Shown: positions 6,354 through 62,870 of the stretch, piece after piece | Layout: each line of letters opens with the position of its first letter | How positions within the stretch are numbered: position 1 is the stretch's first letter | Assembly: GCA_018648225.1 (NCBI GenBank) | Contig: JABGRQ010000073.1 | Coordinates: forward strand, 26,064-90,063 | Source: Chloroflexota bacterium | GTDB taxonomy: Bacteria; Chloroflexota; Anaerolineae; Anaerolineales; UBA11858 | Length of the DNA stretch: 64,000 nt | Direction: 5' to 3' | Notes under the pieces: model-generated | The model's input: the letters and a program-made list of their open reading frames with translations, nothing else | Told to the model about the DNA's origin: nothing | The model's database searches: none | Made by a program: the position numbers and the translations under genes

Positions 6354-7529
6354 ATGAAAAAAACAACCCACATATTGATCGCCATTGCCGCCATGCTTTT
6401 GATCGTCTCGGCAGCCTGTGCGGTATCCGGTCAGGTAACAACTGAAACAACCCCGGTGAGTACAGATGAAATGCCTGCGCCAACAATCGAAGCAACGTCA
6501 CCACCCCCTACGCTGGATTTGCGCACACAAGAAGAACTGCTGACTTCACTCTATCAGCAAGTCAATCCTGGTGTTGTGGCAATTCACGTATTGAGTTCTG
6601 ACAGCATGGGCAGTTCATCGCTGGGTTCTGGCTTCATTATCGATGAAGAAGGCCATATCGTCACCAATTATCATGTCGTCCACGGGGCCTCAGAGCTAGA
6701 AGTGGATTTCCCATCCGGATATAAAACCCGCGCAGAAATCTTGGGAACGGACCCGGATTCGGATATTGCTGTACTCAAAGTGGATGTTCCCGCCGAAGAA
6801 CTGGCCCCGATCTCCCTGGGCGATTCAGACCAGCTCAGGGTGGGTCAAACGGTTGTGGCAATTGGCAACCCCCATGGGTTGTATGGCACCATGACGGTCG
6901 GCATCATCTCGTCGCTGGGGCGCACCATGCAATCCCTGCATGAAGCCCCAGGGGGAGCCTACTTCACCGCGGGCGGCATCATCCAAACCGACGCCGCCAT
7001 CAACCCTGGCAACTCTGGCGGCCCGTTGCTCAACCTGGATGGGGAGATTATTGGCGTCAATGTGGCGATCCAAAGCTCAACATTTGACAGCAGCGGCCAG
7101 CCCGTAAACTCCGGAATTGGCTTTACAATTCCGATCAATATTGTCAAGCGCGTGGTGCCTCATCTCATCGCGGATGGCTATTATAATTATCCGTATATCG
7201 GTATCGGCAGCCTGCCCGGCGGCGAACTGACGCTCATCCAGCAAGAAGAATTAGGGCTGCCACAATCTACCGGCGTGTATATTCTCGATGTATCCAGCGA
7301 TAGCCCCGCGGAAGCTGCCGGGCTGCGCGGCGCTGCCAGAGCCGATAATAATGGTCTCCCGCTGGGTGGCGATCTCATCATTGCCATTGATGACACCGAA
7401 GTGCGCAATTTCAATGATCTAATCACTTATCTCTCGATGCACAAAAGCCCCGGAGATGCTATTATTTTGACGGTTTTGCGCGATGGGGAGGAAGCACAAA
7501 TCGAACTGACGCTGGGTGAACGCCCATAG
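6354..7529 (+). CDS. HtrA/DegP-family trypsin-like serine protease with PDZ domain, exported
   Basis: Signal/anchor LIAIAAMLLIVSAACA, TNYHVV (His), DIAVLKV (Asp), GNSGGPLLN (Ser), and a C-terminal PDZ-like segment. Confidence 0.9.
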   Translation: MKKTTHILIAIAAMLLIVSAACAVSGQVTTETTPVSTDEMPAPTIEATSPPPTLDLRTQEELLTSLYQQVNPGVVAIHVLSSDSMGSSSLGSGFIIDEEGHIVTNYHVVHGASELEVDFPSGYKTRAEILGTDPDSDIAVLKVDVPAEELAPISLGDSDQLRVGQTVVAIGNPHGLYGTMTVGIISSLGRTMQSLHEAPGGAYFTAGGIIQTDAAINPGNSGGPLLNLDGEIIGVNVAIQSSTFDSSGQPVNSGIGFTIPINIVKRVVPHLIADGYYNYPYIGIGSLPGGELTLIQQEELGLPQSTGVYILDVSSDSPAEAAGLRGAARADNNGLPLGGDLIIAIDDTEVRNFNDLITYLSMHKSPGDAIILTVLRDGEEAQIELTLGERP

Positions 7530-7576
7530 CGTAAAAAACAGAACGGGAGCCTACAGCTCCCGTTCTGTTTTTTACG
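7530..7576. terminator. Bidirectional terminator hairpin between convergent genes
   Basis: 21-bp perfect stem CGTAAAAAACAGAACGGGAGC / GCTCCCGTTCTGTTTTTTACG with loop CTACA and A/T tracts on both sides. It covers the stop codon of the minus-strand gene (7572-7574). Confidence 0.6.
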
Positions 7577-10001: not shown

Positions 10002-10348
10002 ATTTCCACCAATACAATGATGATCTATGTTATAATGAAACGGATTTTTGTGCGTTGAGAAGCCACTTACGAACAAATATCAACAGGAGTGCGATTTTCA
10101 TTCAGGCATGGAGGTTTTTGACGAACCATTCTACTAGAAACACCCCGCCTACCCGAATCCACTCGGTTCACGTTCGTAAACGTTAACCGGGTTTTCATTT
10201 TTTTAATAAAGATACTAAAACGGGTCTCCGGGAATCACCGTGGTAGTTCCCAAAGAGCCACAAAAATAGCATATCGGGAAACCATTCAGAGTAAGGATTG
10301 TATCCCAGAGCGTACAACAACGCAACTTGAAGACAACGAACTGCAAGG

Positions 10349-10435
10349 AAATACGCAGTTCATTAGGAAATCGGTAAAAATAGGGGTGTAGGGTGTGCGG
10401 CGCATACCTTACACCCCTATTTTCCGGCTTTTTCT
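10349..10435 (+). repeat. Box-plus-GGGGTGT-hairpin element, copy A (candidate sRNA or leader)
   Basis: AAATACGCAGTTCATTAGGAA box (the 12-mer GTTCATTAGGAA is at 10358-10369), then the hairpin AAAATAGGGGTGTA..TACACCCCTATTTT (10377-10423), then CCGGCTTTTTC. Confidence 0.6.
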
Positions 10436-10468
10436 AACGTAATTATAGAGATCGCGCGAAATTGAATT

Positions 10469-10496
10469 TTGTTATTACTCGCGCCTGTGCTATTAT
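10469..10496 (+). promoter_or_regulatory. Candidate sigma-70 promoter for infA
   Basis: TTGTTA, a 16-nt spacer, then TGcTATTAT (extended -10), about 37 nt upstream of the infA ATG. Confidence 0.4.
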
Positions 10497-23646: not shown

Positions 23647-23770
23647 CGCTTATACTGGGCAGGAGTTCTCGCTTGCGATCGCAAAAAACCTGCAAATATG
23701 AGCATTTATTAATAGCTACAGAAATACCAACAACGCATGATACAATCCGGTGGAAATTCTGATTAGAACT

Positions 23771-23850
23771 TACGCAGTTCGCTAAAATATGTGCCGAAAA
23801 TAGGGGTGTGTTGGGCGCGAAGCGCCCAACACACCCCTATTTTCGGGTTT
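23771..23850 (+). repeat. Box-plus-GGGGTGT-hairpin element, copy B (candidate sRNA or leader)
   Basis: TACGCAGTTCGCTAAAAT box, then the 23-bp perfect stem GAAAATAGGGGTGTGTTGGGCGC-GAA-GCGCCCAACACACCCCTATTTTC. TGATACAAT lies at 23738-23746. Confidence 0.6.
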
Positions 23851-23889
23851 TGCCTGCGCAAGTCCTGCTTATAAAATTAGGAGATACAA

Positions 23890-32687: not shown

Positions 32688-32742
32688 CCTAAAAAGATGG
32701 TTGTGCGGAGCGCAAAGCGCTCCGCACAACCATCTTTTTAGG
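32688..32742. terminator. 26-bp perfect hairpin after the ybaK-like gene
   Basis: CCTAAAAAGATGGTTGTGCGGAGCGC-AAA-GCGCTCCGCACAACCATCTTTTTAGG. Confidence 0.55.
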
Positions 32743-40938: not shown

Positions 40939-41021
40939 ACAACATCACCAGACCTCCAAGATTTTAAACGCTTTAGGACTTACACAATGCGATAAAAAAT
41001 ATCGGAGGTCTTCACGCAATT

Positions 41022-41264
41022 ATGAATCAAGAACACTATAAACAATTTCTTATCGAATATACCAGGCGCGCCCTCGATGGCAGTGATGGCACGCCAGATG
41101 GGGCTGTGCGCTACCTCAATCAACTCAAAAAGCCAGGTATTTTTTCCTCGCAAGAAAAGAAAACTGCTTATGTGCGCGCCCAACGCATATTCGCTGAAAT
41201 GAACGACCGACCGCTTTGGCTGATATTGAAAGCTCTGGGACTATCCCCAGAAGATTTAGAATAA
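41022..41264 (+). CDS. Hypothetical small protein (80 aa)
   Basis: ORF only, with GGAGG 14 nt upstream. No family recognised. Confidence 0.4.
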   Translation: MNQEHYKQFLIEYTRRALDGSDGTPDGAVRYLNQLKKPGIFSSQEKKTAYVRAQRIFAEMNDRPLWLILKALGLSPEDLE

Positions 41265-42582: not shown

Positions 42583-42633
42583 ACGCAAAAAAGATGAGTC
42601 GCTGTAAAATACAGCGACTCATCTTTTTTGCGT
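42583..42633. terminator. Bidirectional terminator, 24-bp perfect hairpin between convergent genes
   Basis: ACGCAAAAAAGATGAGTCGCTGTA-AAA-TACAGCGACTCATCTTTTTTGCGT. Confidence 0.6.
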
Positions 42634-46938: not shown

Positions 46939-47991
46939 CTACGGAATATTCTCTGCCACCAATTCAATCGTCCCGCTTTGCACCTCGGTGTACATTTCTT
47001 CGACGCTGTGCAAGCGCCCCATGCTCAGCCAATCCGGGTTAATCTCGCTGAAGGCCAGCGAAACATCCACAACTTGCCCATTTACTCCGGCTGCGAACTC
47101 AGGCCAAAAATTATAATAGGCTTCGAGGGGAGAAAATATGAGTGAAGCCACCCAGGAGGCGCGCACATTTTCGGGGGGCAGGCTCGTGCCAATCATCTGC
47201 GCGCCTGCCTGAGCGATATAGCGCATCAGGTTCTCATCCCCAGCCCCCGGGCCAAGATAGATCATCTCCACATTGCGCTGCAACAAAAAATCGACCGCGG
47301 CCTGCCATTCGGCTGCATCCGCGCCCGCATTCGCTTGATAATATAAAGGGTACTCCAAAAAAGGCGGGTACGTAGGCGAACACGCGCCACAGTAAAATTT
47401 TGCGCCAGTCAGAAAACTACGCCGCGCCAATTGTCCGGCTTCGGTATCCGCCACGCTAATCACCCCCACACGCCAATCGGGGGTAAGCATGGCGGCGATA
47501 TATCCGGCCAAAAAGCCCTGCTGATCGAAACGCCCGCCATCGGCGCCGATCACGCTGATATTTGAGGCAGCCTCAATGCCATTTACGCCAACAGCCAGAA
47601 AACGCGTTTCCGGTGCAGCCGCGGCCCAGATCGCCAAATCGGGGGCAGGGGGCAATGCGATCACCCACTGAATATCATCGGCCTGGATGCTCTCGATAGA
47701 CAGTGAGGGGCGCATTTGATAGCGCAATCCGGCTGCGGGAATGGCCTGTGTCAGGTGAGTTTGAAGCGCATCCACCAGGGCTGGATCCGCGCCATCGGGA
47801 GCAAACAGCACCCCCACGGGTGGGAGCGGCGTGGCTGCAGGTGGAGGAGGCTCTGTGGGCAAAGAAGTTGGTTCTGCCTCCGCCGGAGGTTGAGTCGCCG
47901 CAGTGCGCTCCGCGTCTGCGCCACTGCATCCGGCCAGGCCAATCAGCAAGATTATGAAGAATATTCCAACAAATATTCGGGTAGACTTCAT
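46939..47991 (-). CDS. BMP-family (Med/PnrA-like) substrate-binding lipoprotein
   Basis: Lipobox LIGLAGC, a Pro-rich linker and a periplasmic-binding-fold body. First gene of the four-gene importer operon. Confidence 0.8.
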   Translation of the reverse strand: MKSTRIFVGIFFIILLIGLAGCSGADAERTAATQPPAEAEPTSLPTEPPPPAATPLPPVGVLFAPDGADPALVDALQTHLTQAIPAAGLRYQMRPSLSIESIQADDIQWVIALPPAPDLAIWAAAAPETRFLAVGVNGIEAASNISVIGADGGRFDQQGFLAGYIAAMLTPDWRVGVISVADTEAGQLARRSFLTGAKFYCGACSPTYPPFLEYPLYYQANAGADAAEWQAAVDFLLQRNVEMIYLGPGAGDENLMRYIAQAGAQMIGTSLPPENVRASWVASLIFSPLEAYYNFWPEFAAGVNGQVVDVSLAFSEINPDWLSMGRLHSVEEMYTEVQSGTIELVAENIP

Positions 47992-48046
47992 TCGTTCACT
48001 ACTCCCGTAAGAAAATTATTGGCTATTTGGGAATCGTCGGGGTTGC

Positions 48047-48128
48047 CCCCAGATATAGGGGTGTACGGGGTGCTTCGCACCCCGTACACCCCTATATCTG
48101 GGGAATGTCCCGCCAGTTCCTAATGAAC
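48047..48128 (-). repeat. Box-plus-GGGGTGT-hairpin element, copy C (candidate sRNA or leader)
   Basis: On the minus strand: GTTCATTAGGAA (48128-48117), then the 27-bp perfect stem CCCCAGATATAGGGGTGTACGGGGTGC and its complement (48103-48047). Confidence 0.6.
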
Positions 48129-48277
48129 CTGTATTTTACTTCATTCGGGCATTCAGCGCGCCTGTAATCTTGTAACCCTGAGCCGTGGCGCGTATTGTAT
48201 AATAAGCACAGACTCGAGCTATACGATTCCATGGCGGCATCACAAAGCAATTTAGTACACACTATTTTAGCAAAAAA

Positions 48278-60459: not shown

Positions 60460-60619
60460 TTTCCTTACTCCTCCATTTGGATTAGGTAAATGGGTTTGAT
60501 TTTTTTCGTACAGGTGTGTGTTCAGATTACAGTCTCAATCTTGGCAGGCACCACCTCCTTATGGGTTACACTATGCAGTAAATTTCTAGAACTTCAGGAT
60601 CTACTGTGAGAAATCTCAT

Positions 60620-60693
60620 ATTTAGGGGTACGCAGCAGACAAAACCCGCTGCATACCCCTAAATACGGACACCCACTATTCAATTCCTAAAGA
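60620..60693 (-). repeat. Box-plus-GGGGT-hairpin element, copy D (candidate sRNA or leader)
   Basis: On the minus strand: TCTTTAGGAA (60693-60684), then the hairpin ATTTAGGGGTA..TACCCCTAAAT (60664-60620). TGTTATAAT lies at 60774-60766. Confidence 0.6.
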
Positions 60694-60831
60694 GCCAAAA
60701 TTTCTCGGGCGCTATGCTGCGATTGTGTCGTTTTTGTGGTACAGCGCCCACTTACTAGCCAAGCGATTATAACATAACTAAAACTTGCCTAATAGCCATA
60801 AGCAACGCCAAAAAATGGCGCTAAATCTTCA

Positions 60832-62772: not shown

Positions 62773-62790
62773 AATTTCAAAATAAAAAAC

Positions 62791-62839
62791 GAAAAGCGGC
62801 TGCGCATAAGGGGTGCGCCCTTATGCGCAGCCGCTTTTC
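62791..62839 (-). terminator. Terminator after the ECF sigma operon
   Basis: 22-bp perfect stem GAAAAGCGGCTGCGCATAAGGG and its complement. On the minus strand it is followed by TTTTCGTTTTTTATTTT. Confidence 0.6.
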
Positions 62840-62870
62840 GATAATCTCCCAATTTTTGGCAAGGCAATAC

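Follow-up and report, generated by a model that had tools for sequence, protein, structure and literature searches.

The four loci that share a conserved box and a long GGGGTGT-stem hairpin in the window (the whole stretch of 64,000 nucleotides that was analysed) are mobile DNA, and neither a novel small-RNA class nor a novel type of leader: very probably they are intact or decayed copies of two related families of non-coding MITEs of the Anaerolineae, here called T1 and T2. Each box and its hairpin belong together to one palindromic element of about 100–113 bp; intact units measure 109–113 bp and have no coding capacity, and the window copies measure 95–109 bp. T1, represented by window copies A and B, is ~113 bp long when intact and carries a 13-bp TIR, TAGGA(C/G)TTACGCA (TAGGACTTACGCA), at both ends of most full-length copies. 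T2, represented by copies C and D, is ~109 bp long with the TIR GGCTCTTTGGGAA, also given as GGYTCTTTRGGAA. What an earlier note on this DNA called the box is the sub-terminal arm in T1 and the terminal repeat in T2, its hairpin is the centre of the element, and the entire element is a long imperfect palindrome. For example, ~30 copies from the MAG CAYFMI01 align end to end as a 113-bp unit composed of TIR, arm, hairpin, arm and TIR. In the window, copy C retains its TIRs at both ends, B and D at one end, and A as remnants. In the literature that was searched, the MITE family is not described, MITEs of Anaerolinea(e) are not the subject of any paper, and the TIR sequence turned up in no further publication.

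What identifies these repeats as transposable elements? The combination of TIRs and target-site duplications (TSDs) is the mark of DDE transposition. A perfect 5-bp TSD flanks 36 of the 56 full-length T1 copies, and 7 more match at four of five positions; at seven control offsets there were 0 perfect 5/5 matches. The 36 TSDs represent 33 distinct sequences (three occur twice) and are 73% A+T, against a background of 47%. Similarly, T2 elements are flanked by 8-bp TSDs at loci L052 (7/8 and 8/8), L087 (8/8) and L097 (8/8), three of the four being perfect. None of the four window copies has a recognisable TSD, and their status as MITEs thus rests on homology to intact copies elsewhere. Such copies are numerous. 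A scan of public genomes placed the hairpin core at no fewer than 120 loci, mostly in Anaerolineae/Anaerolineales MAGs, the core matches listed coming mostly from five Anaerolineae-class MAGs. A profile search of the window and the Chloroflexi loci among the matches listed identified 135 elements, that is, in the window and in loci of at least six Anaerolineae-class MAGs that had been gathered with the hairpin core as the search pattern. One copy type occurs at two unrelated loci, as window copy C and at L097. A filled and an empty site were also found: the window has a 38-bp T2 mini-element that the orthologous site (L075) of a 92%-identical genome lacks; the demonstration of insertion polymorphism is limited to this mini-element, copy A being common to both genomes. 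Further T2 mini-elements, of 68–69 bp and with 8-bp duplications, lie in L052. That the unit spreads as DNA is shown by its TIRs and TSDs. A MITE-like repeat had been the third option of the earlier note, and it is the one that the TIRs, the 5-bp and 8-bp TSDs and the many dispersed copies in several species bear out.

The shared motif on which the earlier note had built is real. The hairpin-stem motif ATAGGGGTGT-N21-ACACCCCTAT is exact at 10380–10420, 23800–23840 and 48055–48095, and the 10-mer with one mismatch allowed has 8 matches in place of the 2.1 expected, a number that 0 of 100 shuffles reach. The box GTTCATTAGGAA is identical at 10358–10369 (+) and 48128–48117 (−), copy D has GGCTCTTTAGGAAT ahead of a diverged hairpin at 60664–60620, and all four copies fold far better than shuffles on the gene-direction strand (z = −6.8 to −9.9). 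The weak boxes are by themselves at chance when up to three mismatches are allowed (49 versus 47 expected), and they count only because the family alignments place them at homologous positions. The notion of a single four-copy family had to be given up, A and B matching the T1 profile and C and D the T2 profile.

Copy A (10346–10447, + strand) is a decayed T1 MITE that matches model positions 2–99 of the T1 profile (E = 5e-15) and consists of a left TIR remnant, AAGGAAATACGCA, the sub-terminal box GTTCATTAGGAA, the hairpin at 10377–10423, which resembles a terminator on the + strand according to a terminator scan, and a truncated right arm, with no TSD left. It has an orthologue at the 92%-identical locus L075; the intergenic region is ~95% identical throughout, and the element is conserved no better than its flanks and therefore shows no sign of exaptation. 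Copy B (23763–23864, + strand; T1 profile, E = 6e-24) has an intact left TIR, TAGAACTTACGCA, and has lost the outer right TIR. Its hairpin at 23794–23846 has a perfect stem that we measured at 25 bp, where 23 bp had been given before, and the element ends 26 nt upstream of the GTG of the triple-FKBP gene; elements of CAYFMI01, CALCSH01 and JADHXE01 are 80–87% identical to 23762–23867. Copy C (48021–48129, − strand), identified by the T2 profile and by homology to L097, is a complete 109-bp T2 MITE with the TIRs GGTTCATTAGGAA and GGCTATTTGGGAA (right end, reverse complement). Over 109 nt it is 92.7% identical to the element at the unrelated locus L097, which lies between the 8-bp duplications TTTTCTTT. 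Its central stem of 27–28 bp is not followed by a T-tract and is not terminator-like. The element stops 30 nt upstream of the ATG at 47991 and folds with an energy of −74.6 kcal/mol (gene strand) or −77.0 kcal/mol (opposite strand). Copy D (60596–60697, − strand) is a diverged T2 MITE between two tandem family-5 binding-protein genes, found at 60696–60596 by a T2 profile built without it (E = 4e-8); the left TIR, GGCTCTTTAGGAAT, is intact, the hairpin follows at 60664–60620, and the right TIR has decayed. Because they have lost an end or their duplications, A, B and D are probably immobile relics; copy C keeps both ends.

Three further pieces of the window are related to these elements to different degrees. 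A solo T1 left arm without a hairpin, TAGGACTTACACAATGCGATAAAAAATATCGGA (40973–41005, + strand), was found by a TIR search with up to two mismatches; it resembles the left arm of the CALCSH01 element and is the remnant of a fifth insertion. The 38-bp mini-element (10222–10259, + strand), with the T2-type ends GGGTCTCCGGGAAT and GTTCCCAAAGAGCC and no hairpin core, came to light as a gap in the pairwise alignment, where it forms part of 46 nt inserted in the window relative to the orthologous L075 site, and the T2 profile matches it weakly, at 10223–10254 (E = 0.17). Finally, a perfect 26-bp A-tract/T-tract palindrome at 32688–32742, 17 nt past the stop of a tRNA_edit-domain gene, matches the T1 profile in the window search (E = 5e-8) and is built like the MITE hairpin. 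No TIRs were seen around it, the similarity is only distant, and its membership of the MITE family is uncertain; it is probably a working bidirectional terminator.

The earlier note had preferred to see in these loci either small RNAs of ~90–150 nt, transcribed independently from a promoter of their own and ended by their own terminator, or attenuator-type leaders, and we now consider both very improbable and largely refuted as explanations at the level of the family. The RNA readings could draw on extended −10 motifs ahead of B (TGATACAAT, 23738–23746, + strand, 17 nt upstream) and ahead of D (TGTTATAAT, 60766–60774, − strand), the pattern TGNTAYAAT being enriched in the window (10 sites versus 2.9 expected, some of them just upstream of two tRNA genes). 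However, both motifs lie outside the element and such promoters are absent from other copies; likewise, the extra GC stems that had been counted as part of the layout fall outside the repeat unit, L097 sharing only 48129–48021 with the window, and the promoter-like site of infA (10469–10496) is downstream of copy A. The downstream genes are partly as described, Pfam supporting infA, the triple-FKBP protein and the family-5 binding protein and giving no match for the "BMP-family" gene at 46939–47991. Their co-orientation with the elements is informative for B and D only; A and C lie between divergent genes, so that it is automatic there. A census of the elements, which the earlier note had itself named as a refuting check, largely dissolves the link to gene orientation, leaving a weak bias of ~2:1 (22:10, p = 0.05; 33:16 at 3' ends; p from 0.05 to 0.23), and the contexts of the elements, 56 tandem, 26 divergent and 9 convergent, are at background (about 51, 26 and 14 expected by intergenic length, p = 0.3–0.4). 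In copies A and D the gene-direction strand does have the better pairing, with an advantage of 10 and 18 kcal/mol, only G-U wobbles breaking the perfect pairing on that strand, but we reject these wobbles as a strand signal: across 56 elements sense and antisense fold energies are equal, with no sense-strand advantage relative to the flanking genes (22 versus 26, p = 0.93). In the apical stems, read in element orientation, there are 9 G-T and 2 A-C mismatches, a sample too small to interpret, and strand-biased deamination could also account for the G-T excess. Relative to the arms, the triplet of the apical loop reads either way about equally often (TCC 10 and GGA 9; GAA 4 and TTC 4). Random loop orientation, symmetric folding, promoters outside the unit and gene context at background thus argue against small RNAs and leaders alike, as do TIRs and TSDs, which record spread as DNA. 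The earlier note had recognised no known RNA family, and Rfam agrees: at the gathering score no family matched the window, L029, L075 or L097, and copies C and B, scanned with an E-value cut-off of 1, matched only sub-threshold generic long hairpins, such as eukaryotic miRNA precursors. Stem pairing is nonetheless well kept, with 93.5% of cells paired, both sides changed in 17 of 27 pairs and 49 of 61 apical stems perfect; the covariation, though strong, is symmetric. Pairing of this quality is not what neutral decay of selfish DNA alone would predict, and something maintains the palindrome, either selection or correction at the DNA level.

Is the hairpin itself the functional unit? Its core (A-tract, (T)AGGGGTGTG ... 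CACACCCCT(A), T-tract) occurs inside three TIR types, T1, T2 and T3, the last with GTAACTGCTCAGCC ends and 8-bp duplications, and also inside T1-type elements of cyanobacteria, and hence in two phyla. We tentatively raise the idea, unlikely as it is on present evidence, that the hairpin is a shared, exchangeable cargo module of at least three MITE families in two phyla (Chloroflexota and Cyanobacteria), maybe kept for a function. The three carrier families, with their different ends and duplication lengths, may depend on two or more transposase families, an IS701-like one for T1 and an ISL3-like one for T2. Such a module could serve the host as a portable bidirectional terminator or insulator, insertions thereby becoming tolerable or useful, or it could be a DNA hairpin required in cis to join the element ends for transposition; random loop orientation and near-perfect stems would then reflect active correction of the palindrome at the DNA level. 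Still less probable, in our estimate, is a stronger version in which the module, as a portable bidirectional intrinsic terminator or insulator, is retained by the host and exchanged among transposons, the TIRs being only a vehicle. In addition to the recurrence of the core in three TIR types with different duplication lengths and in cyanobacteria, this version is favoured by pairing kept through changes on both sides, by the same build in window hairpins at convergent or 3' gene ends (7530–7576, 42583–42633, 62790–62840 and 32688–32742), and by the precedent of the SPRITE repeat of S. pneumoniae (PMC10969869). A G+C-rich stem followed by a T-run is present in copy A, whose hairpin was flagged as terminator-like, and by eye in the T1 and T3 consensus (CCCCTATTTTTCGG). 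However, the scan did not flag copy B, C and D have no stem with T-run, and no T-tract follows the stem in these two or in other T2 copies. Neither gene 3' ends nor convergent regions show an excess of elements (the 56/26/9 distribution given above), B and C end 26–30 nt ahead of start codons, and an element lies no more than 40 nt away from 31 of the 123 gene starts that face one; a strong terminator so near a start codon would silence the gene. The conservation of the core is moreover partly built in, since the loci were collected by the core pattern. A last reading, to which we give almost no credence, takes the loci as REP/REPIN palindromes mobilised by a RAYT (IS200/IS605-type tyrosine) transposase. 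They are indeed short, G+C-rich extragenic palindromes in many copies, but their arms are not palindromic REP units, and they have TIRs and precise 5-bp or 8-bp TSDs; to our knowledge neither RAYT nor IS200/IS605 enzymes make this combination, and we know of no REPINs that carry it. We rejected the REP/REPIN reading on the TIRs and duplications.

Which enzymes would move the MITEs? We propose that T1 and T2, as short non-coding DNA transposons, depend for their cut-and-paste movement on a transposase encoded elsewhere, insertion of T1 duplicating 5 bp of an A+T-rich target and insertion of T2 duplicating 8 bp. The match of the T1 TIR to that of ISPlag1 suggests that an IS701-family DDE transposase moves T1, and the GGCTCTT-type ends and 8-bp duplication of T2 similarly suggest an ISL3-family transposase; these two families are the likely mobilisers. 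As no autonomous element with T1 or T2 ends was found in the window or in loci L001–L120, both assignments are drawn from the likeness of the TIRs and the length of the duplications. Searching all loci for the TIR returned further MITEs, solo ends and weak two-mismatch singletons and no parent IS, and a search for paired TIRs 0.6–3.5 kb apart with duplications gave nothing credible. The published TIR of ISPlag1, a Planktothrix element of the IS701 group, contains AGGACTTACGCA, which is common to the T1 TIR (PMC2464740); its terminal repeat, which begins CAGGACTTACGCA, matches T1 at 12 of 13 positions. An ISPlag1-like element recovered from a metagenome encodes a 344-aa transposase that scores 396 bits on NCBIfam NF049921 ("IS701 family transposase"). 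With this transposase, tblastn found matches in metagenome loci only and none in Anaerolineae loci, and a homologue search returned more than 7,000 proteins, the best 120 of which offered no route to an Anaerolineae partner, the named ones among them being mostly cyanobacterial. Two candidate ORFs for a parent IS, obtained by tblastn with the published ISPlag1 motif, proved not to be transposases. A full IS copy (L182) has the same ends and no clean duplication. Elements of the ISL3 family that have GGCTCTTCG ends and 8-bp repeats are on record, as is a MITE of ISL3 origin (PMC6305408, PMC11448079).

Several known systems resemble the window elements in part. Remnants of ISPlag1 of 197 bp have been published (PMC2464740), and ISPlag1-type short non-coding derivatives occur in metagenome loci as 48–50-bp end-to-end palindromes; however, ISPlag1 is cyanobacterial, has no similarity to T1 past the first 13 bp and no GGGGTGT hairpin, and the ISPlag1-like copy examined had no clean duplication. 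The 187-nt ISL3-derived MITE of Microcystis aeruginosa has GGCTCTT-type ends and 8-nt direct repeats, forms a stem-loop and occurs in many copies; where it sits within a gene, transcription runs through it (PMC11448079). T2, as seen in C and D, shares its end type and duplication length, whereas the Microcystis MITE differs in internal sequence and length, resides in a cyanobacterial host and has no GGGGTGT core. SPRITE, the dispersed small repeat of S. pneumoniae, has a conserved core resembling an intrinsic terminator (PMC10969869). The likeness to the window MITEs is judged on that core, the phylum being different and there being no sequence similarity. The window MITEs can also be compared with the Correia elements (CREE/NEMIS), which are unrelated in sequence and are not known to have an A-tract/T-tract terminator-like core. 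Correia elements are MITEs of ~100–150 bp with TIRs that duplicate TA, are known only from Neisseria and lie between and near genes; they are co-transcribed, form long hairpins that affect mRNA processing, and are sometimes promoter donors.

What would the insertions do to their neighbours? Copies A and C lie between divergent genes, and B and C adjoin start codons. A preference for A+T-rich targets would place elements beside promoters and ribosome-binding sites, and for this reason B, C and D probably lie within transcribed 5' UTRs, copy B in that of the FKBP gene if the motif at 23738–23746 is active. There, B, C and D would fold into very stable hairpins (−47 to −75 kcal/mol), and if termination or mRNA stability were affected, this would be a by-product of insertion and not the reason for the existence of the family.

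Finally, the Anaerolineae are abundant and mostly uncultured. The loci described here belong under mobile-element repeats and not among candidate regulatory RNAs, which removes a false lead: the hairpin would otherwise surface as a "conserved structured RNA with covariation" in screens of Anaerolineae intergenic regions. The window contains a ~110-bp element about every 10–15 kb, and contigs L004, L064 and L089 start inside an element or within a few bases of one; a high-copy MITE of this kind helps to explain the fragmented assemblies of Anaerolineae MAGs. The elements can also serve as markers for population genetics at the strain level, and the ends and core common to Anaerolineae and cyanobacteria point to the transfer of mobile DNA between phyla. 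Should the hairpin prove functional, these families would clearly exemplify, in bacteria, the spread of a terminator-like module by MITEs.

What are the four window loci, copies A to D, at which a conserved box precedes a long GGGGTGT-stem hairpin? The core ATAGGGGTGT-N21-ACACCCCTAT is exact in copy A (10380-10420, + strand), copy B (23800-23840, + strand) and copy C (48055-48095, read on the - strand), and in copy D (hairpin 60664-60620, - strand) it has diverged to TAGGGGTAT... Allowing up to one mismatch, the core 10-mer matches eight times in the window against 2.1 expected, and no shuffle gets to eight. The inner 21 nt of A, B and C vary in sequence from copy to copy with complementarity kept; the perfect stem of B measures 25 bp, and C sits within an imperfect palindrome of 65+65 nt. 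All four copies fold far above shuffles. Both strands of B and C fold equally well; the gene-direction strand is the better one by 10 kcal/mol in A and by 18 kcal/mol in D, via G-U wobbles. The box 12-mer GTTCATTAGGAA is, as the earlier note stated, identical in A and C. Its extension to all four copies fared less well: at three mismatches there are 49 matches against 47 expected, which is chance, so that B and D, whose boxes are weaker, need separate support for them. Pfam bears out infA downstream of A, the triple-FKBP protein downstream of B and the family-5 binding proteins (two, in tandem); the gene called BMP-family has no Pfam match.

The pattern ATAGGGGTGT-N17-25-ACACCCCTAT, searched in a public genome collection holding one genome per species, is present at at least 120 loci (L001-L120). 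Chloroflexota account for about 105 of the matches listed; most of these come from five MAGs of the class Anaerolineae, each contributing 9 to 33 loci to the list. Over 8 kb, the window shares 92% identity with a locus of Anaerolineae bacterium NIOZ-UU35 (L075) and therefore derives from a close relative. In the MAG CAYFMI01, about 30 copies can be aligned over their full length as one unit of 113 bp, which we call T1: TAGGACTTACGCAGTTCGTTGAAAATTTACCGAAAA, then ATAGGGGTGTGTGGGGTGC-loop-GCACCCCACACACCCCTAT, then a right arm that reads TTTTCGGACTTTCCTCTCGCAAGTGCGTAACTCCTA (not TTTTCGGACTTTCCTCTCGCAAGTGCGCTAACTCCTA), with 13-bp terminal inverted repeats (TIRs) TAGGA(C/G)TTACGCA at the ends. The noted box is the T1 sub-terminal arm (GCAGTTCGTTGAAAA); box and hairpin are parts of one element. 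Run against the Chloroflexi loci and the window, a profile HMM from the CAYFMI01 copies detects 135 elements. Three MAG contigs (L004, L064, L089) start inside an element or a few bases from one, consistent with repeats breaking short-read assemblies.

Directly outside both ends of the 56 full-length T1 copies with both flanks available, the 5-bp flanks are identical in 36 and match at 4/5 positions in 7 more; a control at seven offsets yields no 5/5 match. These 36 duplications represent 33 distinct sequences, three seen twice, are 73% A+T against 47% overall, and favour A or T at positions 1 and 5. Such 5-bp duplications are the hallmark of a DDE transposase that inserts by cut and paste and prefers A+T-rich targets. 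At window 40973-41005, a solo left arm of T1 (TAGGACTTACACAATGCGATAAAAAATATCGGA) leads without a gap into a GGAGG ribosome-binding site, beyond which an ATG at 41022 opens an 80-aa ORF without a Pfam match.

Copy C belongs elsewhere. It is 92.7% identical to another NIOZ-UU35 locus (L097) over 48129-48021 only, with unrelated flanks, and this 109-bp unit ends in GGTTCWTTAGGAA and, reverse-complemented on the right, GGCTMTTTGGGAA. Such T2-type ends occur on four units of the genome loci, flanked by 8-bp duplications: TTTTCTTT in L097, CCTTCGTA in L087 and GCATATTT in L052 (each 8/8), and a 7/8 match at a second copy in L052. Of the four, two have the GGGGTGT hairpin and two are mini-versions of 68-69 bp that lack it. 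A profile from four T2 copies, D excluded, matches copy D at 60696-60596 (E = 4e-8), where the left end reads GGCTCTTTAGGAAT. Of the window copies, A and B are thus T1 and C and D T2; the repeat proposed in the earlier note stands, as two families in place of one. The 12-mer common to A and C is explained by the resemblance of the T1 sub-terminal arm to the T2 terminal repeat, which suggests that one family may derive from the other. A mini-element of 38 bp whose ends are of the T2 type (GGGTCTCCGGGAAT...GTTCCCAAAGAGCC, window 10222-10259) lies inside a 46-nt insertion (10216-10262) that the orthologous site in L075 (~6340) lacks; its degenerate 8-bp flank repeat, ACTAAAAC / ACAAAAAT, compares with ACCAAAAT at that empty site. 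The 46-nt difference is direct evidence of a recent insertion or excision, after the window and NIOZ-UU35 genomes split. The genome loci also contain a third family, T3, marked by ends GTAACTGCTCAGCC, a core CCCGAAAAAAGGGTGTGCG...CGCACACCCTTTTTTCGGG and 8-bp duplications; of its six copies, three show a perfect duplication and two a 7/8 match (L008 1265-1376; L034 590-701; L050 5434-5551 and 6590-6702; L068 562-673; L113 4704-4810).

Among the readings offered for these loci, small RNAs or leaders on the one hand and a MITE-like repeat on the other, small size, TIRs, fixed-length duplications and many dispersed copies argue for the repeat, and polarity, strand, context and Rfam all speak against the RNA. 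The Rfam scan of the window returned three tRNAs and nothing else. In CAYFMI01 copies oriented by their arms, the 3-nt apical loop is TCC in 10, GGA in 9, GAA in 4 and TTC in 4, so that, measured against the asymmetric arms, GGA is about as common as TCC and GAA as TTC; the element centre has no fixed polarity, and looks as if it inverts. Among 56 elements flanked by tandem genes, folding favours the sense strand in 22 and the antisense in 26 and is equal in 8, with no difference overall (Wilcoxon p = 0.93). The covariation that had been sought is present and strong, with 93.5% of cells paired, both sides changing in 17 of 27 pairs and no shuffle matching, and it is no argument for RNA because a symmetric DNA palindrome yields the same result. 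Of 61 apical stems in CAYFMI01 loci (e.g., L005, L016, L021, L025), 49 are perfect, their sequences differing by copy; nearly perfect stems with flipping loops suggest DNA-level correction, for example template switching within the palindrome, or hairpin selection. REP/REPIN and RNA-family assignments were also tried and rejected, since their expected features failed.

Co-orientation with genes survives, in the census of all Chloroflexi loci, as a weak bias of about 2:1 for the 'top' strand of an element to be that of its neighbouring genes. Tandem, divergent and convergent contexts number 56, 26 and 9, against about 51, 26 and 14 expected from intergenic length (p = 0.3-0.4; genes called as crude greedy ORFs, each opened at its most upstream start). 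In tandem contexts, 22 elements of confident orientation are co-oriented and 10 opposed (p = 0.05, nominal after several looks); the counts are 33 versus 23 without the confidence filter (p = 0.23), and 33 versus 16 relative to upstream gene ends. Selection or a replication-linked insertion bias could produce this. The promoter-like boxes held in part: the sites before B and D are there, outside the repeat unit, the box before C has no TG, and the promoter-like site of infA lies downstream of copy A. The extended -10 TGNTAYAAT occurs ten times in the window against 2.9 expected (2103, 10028 (+), 10507 (-), 21567, 23738, 39353, 46846, 52727, 53833 and 60766). Two of these directly precede tRNA-Ser and tRNA-Gln, so it is probably a local promoter type, and probably the main one of the organism; transcripts from 10028 (+) and 10507 (-) would both cross copy A.

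Copies B and C end 26 and 30 nt before start codons, which places the promoter of each gene within the element or farther upstream, and the hairpins most likely in 5' UTRs. Of the 123 gene starts that face an element in the census, 31 are no more than 40 nt from it, although true distances may be larger given most-upstream starts. A strong terminator so near gene starts would be harmful. In build (A-tract, long G+C-rich stem, T-tract), the cores of T1 and T3 nonetheless resemble bidirectional terminators native to the lineage; copy A is flagged as terminator-like, and B, C and D are not. What look like these native terminators are four long palindromes at convergent or 3' gene ends (7530-7576, 32688-32742, 42583-42633, 62790-62840). 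Their arms of 21-26 bp pair perfectly, with an A-tract at one flank and a T-tract at the opposite one, a build they have in common with the MITE core. That at 32688-32742, a perfect 26-bp hairpin 17 nt past a gene end, scores weakly with the T1 profile and has no TIRs.

Which transposases might move these elements? A full-text literature search for the T1 end surfaced, in one relevant paper, ISPlag1 of Planktothrix, an IS701-group element with terminal repeat CAGGACTTACGCAAGCACGC... (PMC2464740). A metagenome scan with that repeat uncovered a 1.3-kb element that has it at both ends (L170), whose 344-aa transposase matches NCBIfam NF049921 'IS701 family transposase' at 396 bits (cut-off 250); among the named proteins in the best 120 of more than 7,000 homologues, most are cyanobacterial. 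ISL3-family elements have GGCTCTTCG ends and 8-bp direct repeats, and Microcystis has an ISL3-derived MITE (PMC6305408, PMC11448079). From end sequence and duplication length, we propose that T1 would be mobilised by an IS701-like and T2 by an ISL3-like transposase. No autonomous element with T1 or T2 ends is present in the window or the genome loci L001-L120. The metagenome loci also contain 48-50-bp palindromes consisting solely of the two terminal repeats of ISPlag1, fused at their ends (L138 9908-9955 and 11450-11495; L153; L165; L124 302-347); L138, L153 and L165 have them in pairs with about 1.5 kb between, which may delimit a composite element.

The GGGGTGT hairpin is absent from the ISPlag1-like IS. 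The core is found within T3 elements and within T1-type elements of cyanobacteria with 13-bp T1 ends, in Leptolyngbyaceae (L013 615-821, with the 5-bp duplication AAGGT, and 7196-7331; L092 6691-6886) and Nostoc (L032 ~1826-1930). Its occurrence in three element families and in cyanobacteria implies that the core acts as cargo shared between families and phyla. This sharing is partly ascertainment, since the core was the query that gathered the loci; the core and the 13-bp T1 end together in cyanobacteria cannot be chance. The T1-ended core elements point to mobile DNA that may have been exchanged between Cyanobacteria and Anaerolineae.

The elements are MITEs, a known kind, whose cognate IS was not found in the same lineage (window and genome loci). 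The closest described are ISPlag1 and its remnants, the ISL3-derived Microcystis MITE, the Correia elements of Neisseria and SPRITE of S. pneumoniae; the searchable literature yielded no description of MITEs in Anaerolineae. These MITEs are a caution for structured-RNA screens.
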